Shown one piece after another: positions 1,996 to 20,285 of a DNA stretch of 64,000 nucleotides. The first letter of the stretch is position 1. Each line of letters opens with the position of its first letter. Position numbers and translations under genes: made by a program. The stretch is from Acidobacteriota bacterium. GTDB taxonomy: Bacteria; Acidobacteriota; Blastocatellia; Pyrinomonadales; Pyrinomonadaceae. The DNA is taken from assembly GCA_031412675.1 (NCBI GenBank), contig JANODL010000152.1:5018-69017 (forward strand), written 5' to 3'. The notes under the pieces were generated by a model. That model searched no databases. It was not told where the DNA came from and was given only the letters and a program-made list of their open reading frames with translations.

Positions 1996-3027
1996 TTAGT
2001 GATTGACAGTTTCAAAATCTGACCAACGACCGCCTTTGGTTTCATCAAAAACAGGTTTGATAACTAATTCTCCTTTTTTATTGATATAGCCGATTTTTCT
2101 ATCAATCATAACAGCGGCTAATCCGTGAGAAAATATCCCGACTAGATCAAACTTGGGCGTAATTACAAGTTTTCCGTTGAGATTAATAAACCCGTATTTT
2201 CCATCTTTCTTGACAGAAGCTAAACCTTCGTAAAAATGAAACATTTCATCGTATGTCGGGCGCAATATAAATTTTCCGTTTTTATCAATTATTCCCCATT
2301 TGCCTTTTTCATTTACAATCGAACGACCTTCTTGAAAAATCCCGACAGCGGCGTATTTTGGTTCTAAAATTATTTTTCCGTTACGAGTTTTGAAACCCGC
2401 GCCTCTTTTTTCTTCATCCCAAAAAGATTGAAGTTCAGGATTGCTTCGGCTTATTGGATCAACCTTGGTATTTGTTTCTAAAATTTCACCTTTTTTATTG
2501 ATTAAATACGAGGTAAGTTCCAAATCTTGAATAACCGCAGTTCCATTTATAAATCGATAACAAGTTTCATACTTTATTGGGATAGTCACATTTCCGGCAT
2601 TATCAATATATCCGCATTTATCATCAATTTTGACATCCGCCAAACCTTCGCTGAAAGCAAAAGTGTCATCAAATTGATAATCAACTATTAATCTGCCGCT
2701 TTTATCAATAAAGCCGTATTTACCATCTTTTTTAACAGAAACTAATCTTTCGTCAAACCAGTTAGCGTCATCAAATTGAAAACCAATGACAAGCTCTCCT
2801 TTAGTATTAATAAAACCATATTTATCGCCCATTTCAACAGCCGCGAAACCTTCGCTGAAAGTTAATGCGTAATCATACTGAGGTTGAATAACAAACTCAC
2901 CTTGAGGATTAATAAAACCATATTTTCCTTGATAACTAACTCTTGCTAACGCCATTTCTTGAGCATTTAAAGTTACGGCAAATAATGAGAAAACTATTGC
3001 AGTAAGTAAAAGTATTTTTGGTTTCAT
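1996..3027 (-). CDS. secreted WG (KWG) repeat protein
   Basis: Signal peptide MKPKILLLTAIVFSLFAVTLNAQ, then about ten repeats of the form GKYGFI(D/N)xxG.hhI.P.YD....F.EG.A.V. The gene is visibly AT-richer than its neighbours. Confidence 0.7.
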   Translation of the reverse strand: MKPKILLLTAIVFSLFAVTLNAQEMALARVSYQGKYGFINPQGEFVIQPQYDYALTFSEGFAAVEMGDKYGFINTKGELVIGFQFDDANWFDERLVSVKKDGKYGFIDKSGRLIVDYQFDDTFAFSEGLADVKIDDKCGYIDNAGNVTIPIKYETCYRFINGTAVIQDLELTSYLINKKGEILETNTKVDPISRSNPELQSFWDEEKRGAGFKTRNGKIILEPKYAAVGIFQEGRSIVNEKGKWGIIDKNGKFILRPTYDEMFHFYEGLASVKKDGKYGFINLNGKLVITPKFDLVGIFSHGLAAVMIDRKIGYINKKGELVIKPVFDETKGGRWSDFETVNH

Positions 3028-13682: not shown

Positions 13683-13759
<77 letters not shown>

Positions 13760-14053: not shown

Positions 14054-14638
14054 TTGAAGCCCCGTTTTAGTCAGATTACCGAAGTAAAAAATCAGGTTTC
14101 AGCCCGAGCCGTATCGAGAATGGCAATCGGGCGGGCTTTGCGCTTCAATGTCAGCGGCAGTGCGGCGGATTATATGATTGCTTATATGAGCCGTCCGCTG
14201 ATGAATTACCGGTCAACCCGTGAGGGCGAAGATTTTACCACGCCCGTCAGTGCGATTTACGGTCCGAAAACGATGATTATCAATGAATATTCGAGTTCGG
14301 GCGGCGACCTTTTGCCGTTTTTGTTCAGACAGAACAAACTCGGCGCACTCGTCGGCAAACGAACTTGGGGCGGACTCGTCGGAATTTACAATTATCCGGT
14401 TCTGATGGATGGCGGACAGGTTTCCGCGCCGCGTGTCGCTTTCAGAAACGCGCAGGGCGAGCTTGGTGTCGAGAACAAAGGTGTTGCGCCGGATGTCGAA
14501 GTTGACCTCGATCCGAAAATCTGGCGCACGGGACGTGACGTTCAGCTTGAAAAAGCCGTCGAAGTGACGATAGCCGAAATTAGAAGAAATCCGGTTCGGA
14601 AACCTGTCAAAGGCGCGTTTCCGAACTATCAAAAGTAA
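14054..14638 (+). pseudogene. C-terminal fragment of a tricorn-like S41 peptidase (5'-truncated)
   Basis: The 194 codons match only the C-terminal catalytic region of ~1000-aa S41 tricorn-core peptidases (SAADYMIAYMSRPLMNY...INEYSSSGGD...KRTWGGLVG...NKGVAPDVEV). It has a TTG pseudo-start, and the upstream 250 nt are AT-rich and non-coding. Confidence 0.65.
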
Positions 14639-16238: not shown

Positions 16239-19200
16239 TTATTTAACGCTCATCCAGTTGTCGCCCGCACCGACTTCGACCGTTAAAGGAACGTCCAATT
16301 CGACCGCCGATTCCATTGATTTTTTGATGATTTCCATTGCTTTTTCGACTTCCGCCTCGGGCGATTCAAAAAGCAATTCGTCGTGAACCTGCATAATCAT
16401 CTGCGTTTTCAAGCCGGCGCGCTCTAAATCTTGATCAACTTTGAGCATCGCAATCTTGACAATATCACTCGCCGTGCCTTGCAACGGCATATTGATCGCT
16501 TCGCGTTCGGCGCGTGTGCGGACATTGAAATTGCGGTCATTGATTGACGGAAAATAACGCCGTCTGCCGTAAATCGAAGTAACAAAACCTTTTTCGCGGG
16601 CGGCTTCGGGCGTGGAATCCATAAATTTTTTCACGCCTTTGTAGGTTTCGTAATAATCTTCGATCACCTTTTTCGCCTCGCTGCGCGTCAGCCCGACTCT
16701 CTGCGAAAGTCCGAAGGCTTCGACCGCGTAGGCAATCGCAAAATTGACAATTTTCGCGAGACGGCGTTTTTCTTTTAATTCGGCTTCGGTTTTCGCACCG
16801 AAAACGAGTTCGGCAGTTTGCGCGTGGATGTCTTCGCCGTTTTGAAAGGCTTCGAGCATTCTTTCGTCGCGTGTAACTTGTGCCAGCAATCGCAATTCAA
16901 GCTGTGAATAATCGGCGGAAATCAATTTAAAACCTTTTTCGGGAATGAAAGCGCGGCGAATCTGCTGACCGAGTTCGGTGCGGTTCGGAATATTTTGTAA
17001 ATTCGGGTCGGTAGAATTATGAACTATAATTCCCTGCGCTAAATATTGTTCTACATCTTCGACCATAATGTCATACATTTGCACTGGATTTTCCTGCCAA
17101 ATTTCTTTTATTTTTACTTCATATAATTGAGTCGCAACTGCCTCGTCTACGAAGTTTTTTTCTAAAGAATTATTTTGAGGGAAAGTTGAAAAAGATTTTT
17201 CAACCCATTCCAGACGAGGCAGAGTTGCGTGATGACTTCTCTGAGTTATATATTTTGAAGCCCAAGTCATAATCGGAAACGGAACTCTGCCGTTCGTCTG
17301 ACGATAAAAGTCATAGATAATCGGTTTTAGCTGATTAATATTAAATTCATTTGGTAAAGTCAGAAGTTCGCCGACACTTTTGAGGCTTTTTCTTTTCAAT
17401 AAATCCAGACAGATTCGAGTTTTTCTTTGACTGATAAATCCGATTCGATTAAAAAATACATCTTTCGACCTGTCGCCAAGAATCTGTAAAGTAAATCTGG
17501 TTGCGTATCCGCGAGGGTCATCCGTTCCTTTTTTAACTGTCGAAGGAATCCCGTAAATTGTCAGAAGCTGCTGAACATCTTCAAGCATTTCAGCACTTAC
17601 GGAACGAACTTGAATTCCACCGCTAAAAGACACACAGCCATCACCTTCAAAATAACCGCGCAAAAAAGCGGAAACAATTTCTTCGGGAGCGGTAAAAATA
17701 CTTTTGGGAACGCGAATGTCGCCCGACTTTCCACCTGCTCCGATTCGAACTAAAGCACTTGCAATATCAATGCCCGATAAATCTAAAGTCGGACAAGTTC
17801 GGGTTTTTCTGAAAGTCGGGTTTTTACCAAAAATCTCACAGCATATTCTTGAAAAATGATTGATTAAAGCCTCATCTTCCCAACCGAACGCCAAGACTAT
17901 CTTTGAAGGCTTGCCGTTGTAATTGCTCGAAACAATATGTCCGTCAGCCATACAATAACCGACAAATTCAGCAAACTCAGGCGACCATTTTGTAGGTAAT
18001 TTAGGTGATTTTTTTGTGCGGTAAGCGGTCGCCCGTTCGATATTCAAATCAAGGTCTTGTCCAAATGCTCCTTGATTGAAACTCATATAGACGACATCGC
18101 CGATGAAAAGATTTTTAGCTTCAATCCATTTACCAAGACTGCGAATTTTATGTTCAGGACTGCAACGCAAAGTAATTCCATTTGAAAACTTAAATGCTAT
18201 CACAGGTTTTAGACCGGTATTTTCCCAAGCCAAAATTCTTTTTAACCCAAACGGTGTTCGGATTTTCTCGCCTACACAAACAGATTCAATTCCTACTAAA
18301 CCGCGTTCGGTATTGACAAAAGTATTAGCCGGTAGACAAGACAATCTTCCGGTCGCGGCGACGGTTTGATTGAGCTTGCCGTGAATCCGTCCGTCCGCCG
18401 CGATTTGCGTCGGCAGAACGTCGGAATATGTCGCTTTGAGTTTGTCGAGCTCGCGGAAATCAATGATAAACTGCGCGATTTCATAAGTCAGCGCGAGTTC
18501 CGTGAGAATGTCTTTGCTCGTCGAGATTTGTCCGGTCGCGGTCTTTCGTCCGGTTTCGATATTTAATTCCTGCAAAATTTCGCCGACTTGTTTGGGCGAA
18601 TTGATGTTGAATTCGTGTCCCGCAATCGCGTAAATTTTTTCGCGCAGAGTGTCGAGTTCCGTCGAAACAAAGTCCGAAAAACCGTTCAGCGCGTCAACGT
18701 CAACTTTCATTCCTGCCATTTCAATCTTGTAAAGCAGAGGAATCAGCGGCAATTCGATTTCCGAATAAACCATTTCGAGTCCGTCCTCAACGATTTTTTT
18801 TCTGAGCATCGGCGCAAGCTGAACGATAAAATCGGCACGTTCGGCGGTTCGATATTGATTTTCCGCCCAGCCTTCGAGAACTTCAAACCTAGCGTCCGCG
18901 CCTAAATTTATCTGCGAGAGCGTTTCCAAATCGCTCTTGCGGCTCGAATCTATCAAATAAGACGCGATGCAAGTGTCGTCCACGACAGCTTCGGGCGTGA
19001 TGCCGATTTTATCCAAAACCGACAAATCATTTTTCAAATCGTGCGAGACTTTTTCGAGAAATCCGTTTGATAAAATATCTTTTAAGGATTCAATCGCGCT
19101 TTCTTTGCCGCCTTCAAAGTTTTCCAAATCAACATAATAAGACGCGCCGGCGGCGGTTGCAATCGCCACGCCGAGCGGCGGAAGTTTGTCGAAACTGCTC

Positions 19201-20285
19201 GCTTTCGGCGGCGAATTCGACGAATCAACTTCAAACGACCAATGTTCCGTTTCCCAAAGCCGCCGCGTCAATTTGTCCAAATCTTCGCGCGTGTTGATCA
19301 GTTGATAATTTCTGGTCACAGGCGCGTTCGGCGCGTCGTCCAAACCATCAAAAAGCGGCATCGAATCGGCAAATTCGCGGGTCAAAGCCGTAAATTCGAG
19401 TTCCCGGAAAAGCGCGTAGGCAAGTTGACGATTCGGCTCATTGTGTTTGAGCGCGTCCAAATCGAGTTCGATGTCCATCGTCGTATGAATCGTGGCGAGT
19501 TCCAACGATTGACGAATGATTTCCTGACTGTTCTGCAAAGATTCGCGGTAGGTTTTATGCGTAACTTTATCAGCATTCGCCATCGCGCCTTCCGCCGAAC
19601 CGTATTCCAAAACCAATTTCAACGCGCCTTTTTCGCCGATTCCGGGCGCACCGGGAATATTATCAATCGCATCGCCCATCAAACCGAGCAGGTCAATGAT
19701 TTTCGTCGGCGGAACTCCGAATTTATTTTCGACCCAAGCCTCGTCGCAATACTCGATCGGCGGCACGGCAACTTTGCGTTTGACGTTCTGCGAATTCTGC
19801 CGCATACAAACAATCAGCGGGTCGCGCACGAGTTGGCACAAATCCTTGTCGTTGGAAACAATCACGGATTGCAGACCTTTTTCGGCAACTTTCTGCGCGA
19901 GAGTGCCGATAATATCATCAGCCTCAAAACCCGGATGCCGCAGAATCGGAATGTTAAAGGCTTCGCAGACGCGGACGATATAAGGCATTTGCGACGACAA
20001 ATCTTCGGGCATCGCGGCGCGGTTGGCTTTGTAATCGGCAAACGAATCGTGGCGAAAAGTCTTTTCGGGCGAATCGAAAACGGCGGCGATATAGTCTGGA
20101 TTTTCGTCCGCAAGCAGTTTGCGAAGCATATTCGTGAAAACAAAAACCGCCTGCGTTACCTGCCCTTTCGAGTTTCGCAAAGGTTCTTGGCGTGCGCCCA
20201 TCGGTGCGAAAAAAGCGCGGAAAATATGCGACATCGTATCAATTAAAAAGACGCGTTCGGGTTTTGATTCGGATTCTTTAGCCAT
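16239..20285 (-). CDS. polA: DNA polymerase I, interrupted by an in-frame intein
   Basis: The 5'-nuclease N-terminus, 3'-5' exonuclease-like region and polymerase motifs (DYSQLELRLLA, QVHDELLFE) are all present. The ORF is 1348 aa, or 907 aa after removing the 441-aa insert. Confidence 0.97.
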   Translation of the reverse strand: MAKESESKPERVFLIDTMSHIFRAFFAPMGARQEPLRNSKGQVTQAVFVFTNMLRKLLADENPDYIAAVFDSPEKTFRHDSFADYKANRAAMPEDLSSQMPYIVRVCEAFNIPILRHPGFEADDIIGTLAQKVAEKGLQSVIVSNDKDLCQLVRDPLIVCMRQNSQNVKRKVAVPPIEYCDEAWVENKFGVPPTKIIDLLGLMGDAIDNIPGAPGIGEKGALKLVLEYGSAEGAMANADKVTHKTYRESLQNSQEIIRQSLELATIHTTMDIELDLDALKHNEPNRQLAYALFRELEFTALTREFADSMPLFDGLDDAPNAPVTRNYQLINTREDLDKLTRRLWETEHWSFEVDSSNSPPKASSFDKLPPLGVAIATAAGASYYVDLENFEGGKESAIESLKDILSNGFLEKVSHDLKNDLSVLDKIGITPEAVVDDTCIASYLIDSSRKSDLETLSQINLGADARFEVLEGWAENQYRTAERADFIVQLAPMLRKKIVEDGLEMVYSEIELPLIPLLYKIEMAGMKVDVDALNGFSDFVSTELDTLREKIYAIAGHEFNINSPKQVGEILQELNIETGRKTATGQISTSKDILTELALTYEIAQFIIDFRELDKLKATYSDVLPTQIAADGRIHGKLNQTVAATGRLSCLPANTFVNTERGLVGIESVCVGEKIRTPFGLKRILAWENTGLKPVIAFKFSNGITLRCSPEHKIRSLGKWIEAKNLFIGDVVYMSFNQGAFGQDLDLNIERATAYRTKKSPKLPTKWSPEFAEFVGYCMADGHIVSSNYNGKPSKIVLAFGWEDEALINHFSRICCEIFGKNPTFRKTRTCPTLDLSGIDIASALVRIGAGGKSGDIRVPKSIFTAPEEIVSAFLRGYFEGDGCVSFSGGIQVRSVSAEMLEDVQQLLTIYGIPSTVKKGTDDPRGYATRFTLQILGDRSKDVFFNRIGFISQRKTRICLDLLKRKSLKSVGELLTLPNEFNINQLKPIIYDFYRQTNGRVPFPIMTWASKYITQRSHHATLPRLEWVEKSFSTFPQNNSLEKNFVDEAVATQLYEVKIKEIWQENPVQMYDIMVEDVEQYLAQGIIVHNSTDPNLQNIPNRTELGQQIRRAFIPEKGFKLISADYSQLELRLLAQVTRDERMLEAFQNGEDIHAQTAELVFGAKTEAELKEKRRLAKIVNFAIAYAVEAFGLSQRVGLTRSEAKKVIEDYYETYKGVKKFMDSTPEAAREKGFVTSIYGRRRYFPSINDRNFNVRTRAEREAINMPLQGTASDIVKIAMLKVDQDLERAGLKTQMIMQVHDELLFESPEAEVEKAMEIIKKSMESAVELDVPLTVEVGAGDNWMSVK
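17016..18338 (-). mobile_element. intein with LAGLIDADG homing endonuclease domain inside polA
   Basis: The extein junction is ...AATGRLS|CLPANTF...GIIVHN|STDPNLQNIP. It has Cys1, a block B-like SPEH, two LAGLIDADG motifs (FVGYCMADGHI, FLRGYFEGDGCV), a block F/G (MYDIMVEDVEQYLAQGIIVHN) and a +1 Ser. It is 1323 nt, in frame, and AT-richer than the flanking polA sequence. Confidence 0.9.

Follow-up and report, generated by a model that had tools for sequence, protein, structure and literature searches.

Bacterial DNA polymerase I has already been named as an intein host, both in the text of PMC4760082 and in a table of PMC5874633; PMC4760082 also describes a clustering of inteins at functional motifs of replisome proteins, and other inteins of replication and repair proteins have been described as splicing conditionally (PMC5874633). 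A literature search for a paper describing the particular PolA insertion site reported here, or for the phrase 'PolA intein', returned none. We analysed a 64,000-nucleotide stretch of a Pyrinomonadaceae genome (soil Acidobacteriota bacterium, assembly GCA_031412675.1, contig JANODL010000152.1, positions 5,018 to 69,017), hereafter the window, and found that its chromosomal polA gene, encoding DNA polymerase I (Pol I), carries an insert that is very probably a class-1 intein with a nested double-motif LAGLIDADG homing endonuclease, set in motif 2 of the gene (TGRLS↓STDPNLQNIP; arrows mark intein boundaries).

Among characterised inteins of solved structure, TliVMA and PhoVMA (7qss, 7qsu, 7qst), PI-PfuI (1dq3), PI-PkoII (2cw7) and PI-SceI (1vde) resemble the window intein in having a Hint domain split by a double-motif LAGLIDADG endonuclease, as well as an extra domain that precedes the C-terminal splicing region. 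However, these endonuclease-bearing inteins reside in V-ATPase, ribonucleotide reductase or family-B polymerase, have other target sites, and are only 12-17% identical to the window intein. The RecA intein of M. tuberculosis (PI-MtuI) is likewise a bacterial class-1 intein in a DNA-repair host, and its splicing domain matches residues 33-94 and the C-terminus of the window intein, whereas its host and insertion site are different and the match is confined to the splicing domain.

The insertion in polA

The polA open reading frame (ORF; 16239..20285, stop codon included), taken from the ORF list and profile matches, encodes a 1348-residue precursor made up of N-extein, intein and C-extein; all parts of polA described below lie on the minus strand. 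The host is DNA polymerase I according to NCBIfam PRK05755 (E-value 3.6e-281), the match being broken in two at profile position ~633, and the Pfam domains in the product are 5_3_exonuc_N, 5_3_exonuc, DNA_pol_A_exo1 and DNA_pol_A. The N-extein (18339..20285) spans residues 1-649 and ends in ...TVAATGRLS, and the C-extein (16239..17015) comprises residues 1091-1348 and the stop codon, starts with STDPNLQNIP and contains polymerase motifs A, B and C; its first residue is Ser+1 (17013-17015). Between the two, precursor residues 650-1090 form an in-frame insert of 441 codons with no stop codon, flanked as ...ATGRLS↓CLPANTF...AQGIIVHN↓STDPNLQNIP.

Upon deleting the insert in silico, we obtained a 907-residue protein that aligns without gaps across the junction with E. 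coli Klenow, Taq and Bst Pol I; the 16 residues ATGRLSSTDPNLQNIP of the spliced protein are identical to those of E. coli Klenow, and intein-free relatives of 907 residues match residue for residue across the junction. The first-pass annotation had described a polA product of 1348 residues with 441 extra codons at 17016-18338, inserted exactly between GRLS and STDPNLQNIP, which are contiguous in E. coli. Its coordinates and lengths are confirmed, and the gapless Klenow alignment, together with the alignment against intein-free PolA, places the insert within a contiguous extein motif. Counted along the Klenow alignment, the junction is Ser670↓Ser671 in E. coli Pol I numbering, a count checked by motif A Asp705 (SADYSQ), which aligns downstream as expected. 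In the same numbering the junction falls two residues past Arg668, the primer-terminus contact of Pol I, and because of this proximity the unspliced precursor should be without polymerase activity.

The exteins of the window and of P0161, the nearest intein-free allele, differ by 140 synonymous and 30 non-synonymous codons, giving a ratio of non-synonymous to synonymous divergence (dN/dS) of 0.09, and the polA extein is under strong purifying selection. A 334-residue ORF (19242-20246, plus strand) lies antisense to polA, wholly within the N-extein; it is most likely a by-product of the coding-strand composition of polA and not a gene.

Splicing and endonuclease regions of the intein

Next, we examined the 441-residue intein itself (17016..18338; precursor residues 650-1090) using Pfam, NCBIfam, phmmer, AlphaFold2 and Foldseek. 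The N-terminal splicing (Hint) region, intein residues ~1-100 (18039..18338), is all beta-strand in the structural model and begins with Cys1 (18336-18338), the class-1 nucleophile. Block B is S60-P-E-H63 (18150-18161), so that the TxxH motif reads SPEH with Ser replacing Thr. Blocks F and G, MYDIMVEDVEQYLAQGIIVHN (MYDIMVE...GIIVHN; intein residues 421-441, 17016..17078), supply Asp423 in block F, the penultimate His440 and the terminal Asn441, and are followed by Ser+1. The LAGLIDADG homing-endonuclease domain, intein residues ~113-300 (17439..18002), is delimited by PF14528, phmmer and Foldseek and contains two motifs with an acidic residue near the end of each: FVGYCMADGHI (residues 125-135, 17934-17966) with Asp132, and FLRGYFEGDGCV (residues 225-236, 17631-17666) with Asp233, whose core reads FLRGYFEGD233G. 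Between the endonuclease and the C-terminal splicing region lies a helical domain of about 100 residues (~301-404; 17127..17438). It occupies the place of the PI-PfuI Stirrup domain, its equivalence to the Stirrup and DNA-recognition regions of the solved inteins being putative, and it is the least conserved part of the intein family. The class-1 hallmarks listed in the first-pass annotation (Cys1 in CLPANTF, SPEH, FVGYCMADGHI, FLRGYFEGDGCV, ...AQGIIVHN and Ser+1) are all quoted correctly.

Profile searches place both functional parts above their cut-offs, with PF14890 (Intein_splicing) at 38.8 bits against a Pfam gathering score of 35.8, TIGR01443 (intein C-terminal region) at 20.3 against an NCBIfam cut-off of 15.6, and PF14528 (LAGLIDADG_3) with an E-value of 4e-17 over the second half of the endonuclease. 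Against solved structures, phmmer recovered the V-ATPase inteins 7qss and 7qsu, PI-PkoII, PI-PfuI and the Mtu RecA intein, with E-values of 7e-9 to 8e-6 for the endonuclease-bearing inteins. The window intein aligns over residues 102-272, which include the first endonuclease half, to the TliVMA endonuclease, over residues 168-358 to PI-PfuI (1dq3), and over residues 33-94 to the Mtu RecA intein (E-value 4e-6).

An AlphaFold2 model built from 11 family sequences was confident (predicted local distance difference test, pLDDT, 83.4; predicted template-modelling score, pTM, 0.86). Its N-terminal part (residues 1-87) is all beta; an alpha/beta core follows at ~113-300, then come five helices (304-403), and residues 405-440 at the C-terminus form a beta hairpin region. 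With this predicted model as the query, the best Foldseek matches in the PDB were TliVMA, PI-PfuI, PI-PkoII, PhoVMA and PI-SceI (E-values 2e-20 to 1e-14, template-modelling (TM) scores 0.5-0.63). The endonuclease core of the model matched I-DmoI (E-value 2.5e-6, target-normalised TM score 0.65-0.71), and its Hint part matched the mini-inteins gp41-1, Ssp DnaB and MchDnaB-1 (probability 1.00). The retained catalytic Asp residues and the predicted fold thus support an endonuclease that is apparently intact.

Other classes of element were considered and rejected. Bacterial intein-like (BIL) domains occur in variable, non-conserved proteins and often have no +1 nucleophile, class 2 inteins have no position-1 nucleophile, and class 3 inteins carry a WCT triplet and no Cys1; all three are ruled out by the conserved Pol I host and by the presence of Cys1, Asn441 and Ser+1. 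Cys59, which adjoins block B, is invariant, and a Cys1-Cys59 disulfide switch was set aside as speculation. When this intein and the second intein of a related PolA described below were used as tblastn queries against the window, only the polA insert was recovered.

Same-site relatives and conservation

We searched for relatives of the intein in three collections. A word-indexed search of 5.8 billion proteins gave 12 matches, 11 of which are PolA fragments with the same insertion point (41-59% identical), and among 1.84 billion cluster representatives, searched exhaustively with HMMER, there were six close same-site clusters (P0013-P0018, 49-55% identical). In GTDB, with one genome per species, we found two same-site alleles, both in metagenome-assembled genomes (MAGs) of Acidobacteriota: L001 (MNJR01000059.1, Acidobacteria bacterium 13_1_20CM_3_53_8; 61%) and L002 (DASVXV010000165.1, Pyrinomonadaceae bacterium; 57%). 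The same-site PolA inteins (L001, L002 and the metagenomic proteins P0001-P0018) are clearly homologous to that of the window (E-values down to 1e-147) and share with it the host protein, the insertion point TGRLS↓C...HN↓S, a length of 428-449 residues, the three-part architecture and the catalytic residues, save for P0001, which has Tyr for the second Asp. They differ in their hosts, since the exteins of L001 and L002 are 60-72% identical to those of the window, whereas closer relatives of the window's host are intein-free.

Conservation was assessed in an alignment of nine sequences (A2), from which P0001 was left out, and in a separate alignment of ten sequences that includes it. In A2, Cys1, Ser60, His63, Asp132, Asp233, Asp423, His440 and Asn441 are invariant, as is the FLRGYFEGDG motif. 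The splicing residues Cys1, Ser60, His63, Asp423, His440 and Asn441 are unchanged in the ten-sequence alignment as well. Same-site family members are 48-61% identical to the window intein, and the invariance of the catalytic residues at this level of identity indicates that both the splicing and the endonuclease functions have been under long-term selection. Between the window intein and those of L001 and L002, non-synonymous divergence (dN) is 0.32-0.40; synonymous sites are saturated, so that no synonymous divergence (dS) is given.

L001 also differs from the window in having a second intein at PIQG↓TASD. Its PolA (L001:3997-9375) contains two inteins in one 1777-residue reading frame, one of them at the window's site; the other is a 419-residue LAGLIDADG intein (HPIQG↓CLPYQ...GVISKN↓TASD) whose penultimate residue is Lys and not His. 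The corresponding PLQGTASD site of the window is uninterrupted. Three Pyrinomonadaceae-like PolA proteins (P0216, P0245 and P0280), with exteins about 80% identical to those of the window, carry an intein at this second site only. Three further proteins of 887-1023 residues (P0019, P0020 and P0021) consist of two tandem modules each, 30-34% identical to the full-length window intein; Cys1 and the terminal His-Asn are gone from most copies, the LAGLIDADG motifs are degenerate (e.g. FLRGYFESTGSV, FLRGYLERRLLF), and no extein can be recognised. These proteins resemble intein derivatives that stand alone and have decayed or been domesticated.

Inteins in other family-A polymerases

An intein at TGR[LMY][SAG]↓C...HN↓[SC]..PN.Q was present in 22 of the best 148 representative clusters, all of them family-A polymerases, and several of these are without a 5'-3' exonuclease domain and phage-like in appearance. 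In P0030, P0033, P0034, P0036, P0040, P0049 and others, the intein breaks TGR(L/M/Y)S...PNLQN as it does in the window, whereas the inteins of these other family-A polymerases, at or near the motif, are only ~22-32% identical to the window intein and several have Cys+1. Further insertion points in PolA were found before motif A (A↓C...HN↓CDYS), within motif B (AK↓C...HN↓T..FG..YG) and at PIQG↓TASD.

Staphylococcus Silviavirus phages (e.g. vB_SauM-V1SA22, ON814136.1) have an intein in a protein annotated as DNA polymerase I, four residues upstream of the window's site (GTA↓C...HN↓TSRLSSNNPNLQN). In the vB_SauM-V1SA22 locus (L009:702-4451) the boundaries read ...STGTA↓CITGDS...IVNHN↓TSRLSSNNPNLQN, and the C-terminus of the polymerase is annotated as a separate coding sequence further downstream, which implies that the phage polymerase gene is interrupted more than once. 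Outside polA, the best matches in the one-genome-per-species scan came from Chloroflexi MAGs (L003-L008), in which ribonucleotide reductase frames of 1424-2099 residues hold two or three inteins each, one of them ~28% identical to the window intein.

Pol I is already on record as a host of inteins, and public Acidobacteriota genomes already contain inteins at this site. The first-pass annotation had called PolA inteins uncommon, which stands insofar as they are rarer than DnaB or ribonucleotide reductase inteins, but they are not new. The window intein is a new and divergent allele, the closest match found being 61% identical to it.

Distribution, composition and flanking divergence

Among close PolA relatives the intein is sporadic. 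The best matches of the spliced extein are Pyrinomonadaceae PolA proteins of 904-911 residues, 97, 94, 90, 89% identical and lower, and these are intein-free. Down to 78% identity, the best 55 PolA matches contain no intein, and among the best 120 none has an intein at the window's site and three have one at PIQG↓TASD. The genes neighbouring polA in the window flank it on both sides in the contig of P0162, a 94% relative, and on one side only in that of P0161, a 97% relative.

The composition of the intein also sets it apart. The first-pass annotation had noted that the insert is AT-richer than the exteins, and we find a GC content of 39.2% against 49.5% and 48.3%. GC content at third codon positions (GC3) is 0.31 in the intein versus 0.56 and 0.53 in the exteins, the 29 long ORFs of the window having a mean of 0.51 (standard deviation 0.06), and intein GC3 is likewise lower than extein GC3 in L001 and L002. 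No near-identical copy of the intein was found among the 5.8 billion proteins or in IMG/VR, where nothing matched above 32%, and no donor was identified. The GenBank phage collection yielded no phage vector, giving 21-25% matches only, in other hosts or at the neighbouring PolA site.

We then compared the extein DNA with that of P0161, to which the window is 92.6% identical. The most diverged 375-nucleotide stretch runs from -40 to +335 around the insertion point, and we describe it as a co-conversion-like tract. Its C-extein part (16681..17015) is the most diverged extein DNA relative to this nearest intein-free allele, and its N-extein part (18339..18378) includes a synonymous cluster in the last 18 nucleotides before the intein. 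Mismatches amount to 13.6% in the tract versus 6.4% elsewhere (Fisher p-value 5.5e-6), none of 2000 shuffles reached the observed divergence in a max-scan permutation, and dS is 0.51 in the tract versus 0.24-0.27 elsewhere. Over the N-extein, P0161 is the nearest sequence to the window (97.7% amino acid identity); over the first 110 C-extein residues, P0161 is nearer to P0162 (98.2%) than to the window (92.7%). At the junction, the window's codons (AGA TTG TCT↓TCT...TTA) are AT-richer than those of P0161 (CGT TTG AGT↓TCG...CTG), in keeping with an AT-rich intein. Taken together, the patchy distribution, the composition and the diverged tract are consistent with an intein acquired through homing or recombination, its flanks being co-converted. 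Sporadic among close relatives and bearing what appear to be traces of horizontal acquisition, the insert behaves as a mobile element would.

Other features of the window

A 343-residue WG_beta_rep repeat protein (1996-3027, minus strand; Pfam E-value 1e-81) has a GC3 of 0.25 and may have been horizontally acquired; besides the polA insert, no other long ORF of the window shows a strong AT shift. Adjoining the tRNA-Ala at 13683-13759, a 194-residue ORF (14054-14638, plus strand) contains the C-terminal half of Peptidase_S41 only (profile positions 80-165 of 165). In the 97% relative (L010), a tricorn-type protease gene lies downstream of polA, its 1085-residue product running past the end of the locus, together with kinase and extracytoplasmic function (ECF) sigma genes that are absent from the window. 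Because of these downstream genes in L010, the Peptidase_S41 ORF is probably a gene remnant of a rearrangement or deletion.

Discussion

The proposed course of events is as follows. The polA gene would be translated as the 1348-residue precursor, and the two intein ends would fold together into a single Hint domain. Cys1 would carry out an N-S acyl shift at the Ser649-Cys650 bond, yielding a thioester that the hydroxyl of Ser+1 would attack in a trans-esterification, giving a branched intermediate. Cyclisation of Asn441, assisted by His440, would release the intein, and an O-N shift would restore a Ser-Ser peptide bond. The product would be a normal Pol I of 907 residues with the motif TGRLSSTDPNLQNIP uninterrupted, the ligated junction peptide reading LS-STDPNLQNIPNR. 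With Asp132 and Asp233 of its endonuclease domain, the freed 441-residue intein would then cleave intein-free polA alleles at the insertion point, the candidate target being the junction of the nearest intein-free allele, P0161 (GCAACCGGACGTTTGAGT↓TCGACCGACCCGAATCTGCAA), and recombinational repair from the intein-bearing copy would transfer the intein and adjacent extein DNA. The architecture, the catalytic residues, the fold prediction, the contiguous extein, the patchy distribution, the composition and the diverged tract are observations; protein splicing, DNA cleavage and the target sequence are what we infer for this locus.

Several observations weigh against such an account of an active, recently homed intein. 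Splicing and endonuclease activity are predicted from sequence and modelled structure; as for the claim of an intact endonuclease in the first-pass annotation, the conserved catalytic Asp residues and the predicted fold support it for the domain, whose activity is putative. TIGR01445, the profile of the intein N-terminal region, scored 16.2, under its cut-off of 24.5, and the Pfam Intein_splicing alignment begins only at profile position 43. In block F, the position occupied by His in Ssp DnaB has Glu in the window and in six of nine relatives; P0015, P0001 and P0018 have Gln, Asn or Gly there. The ten-sequence alignment shows Tyr in place of Asp233 in P0001, and endonuclease decay therefore occurs in this intein family. 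No donor was found, the closest relatives of the intein being only 57-61% identical to it, so that the case for recent homing is an indirect one. Finally, the control pair P0161-P0162 is mildly raised in the same tract (12.0% vs 9.0%, p-value 0.07), and part of the tract's excess divergence could be local rate variation.

Alternatively, the intein could splice normally with an endonuclease that is no longer active, and so be a fixed, vertically inherited passenger at a late stage of the homing cycle, which we consider a real but decidedly less probable explanation. Compared with L001 or L002, the window shows similar identities in extein (60-72%) and intein (57-61%), which is compatible with long co-residence; in addition, no near-identical copy was found in either the protein collection or IMG/VR, and P0001 has lost an active-site residue. 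However, both catalytic Asp residues and the motif residues around them are intact in the window and invariant in A2, PolA relatives at 97% identity are intein-free, the diverged tract adjoins the junction, and the intein GC3 is strongly non-host, which argues against very long residence. An insert that does not splice at all, whether in an inactivated polA, through an assembly chimera or as an intron misread as coding sequence, is scarcely credible. The lower GC content could in principle reflect foreign DNA joined by misassembly, whereas the insert is in frame over all its codons, splits a contiguous universal motif at an exact residue boundary, has every splicing residue and recurs with the same architecture independently in other genomes. 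An assembly chimera or pseudogene is ruled out by these residue-exact boundaries, the intact frame, the replicated architecture and the extein dN/dS, which signals strong purifying selection. A group I or II intron with a LAGLIDADG ORF is ruled out as well, since the insert is in frame, carries Hint blocks and has no intron RNA; the Rfam scan of the whole window returned two tRNAs only and no group I or II intron.

It is also conceivable that co-option has turned the intein into a conditional switch, responding to a signal such as redox state, temperature or DNA damage, that gates the supply of active Pol I. The position of the junction, two residues from Arg668 within the primer-terminus motif, should make the precursor inactive, and precedents can be drawn from the conditional splicing of other replication and repair inteins (PMC5874633) and from the placement of inteins at functional replisome motifs set out in PMC4760082. 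Yet no sensor is indicated in the sequence, the Ser at +1 makes a Cys1-Cys+1 disulfide impossible, and most close relatives are intein-free, hence this is no conserved regulatory feature of the lineage; we regard a switch as quite improbable. The joint proposal of a currently active homing element with an uncharacterised specificity for the universally conserved TGRLSS/PNLQN coding region of family-A polymerases and of conditional splicing that gates Pol I after translation is unlikely to hold as a whole. A class-1 intein with an apparently intact homing endonuclease is the reading that we prefer.

The importance of the finding is modest. For annotation, the gene is better described as an intein-containing polA with a mature product of 907 residues than as an oversized polymerase, and the window adds a divergent allele to the small PolA intein family. 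Many family-A polymerases, both bacterial and phage-like, have an intein in motif 2, a recurrence that fits the clustering of inteins at functional motifs of replication proteins published in PMC4760082. The 97%-identical intein-free relative and the tract at the junction make a clean natural pair for the study of homing and co-conversion. An active endonuclease would cut rarely and target a highly conserved sequence, and the intein could be used as a splicing module compatible with Ser on either side, at -1 and at +1.

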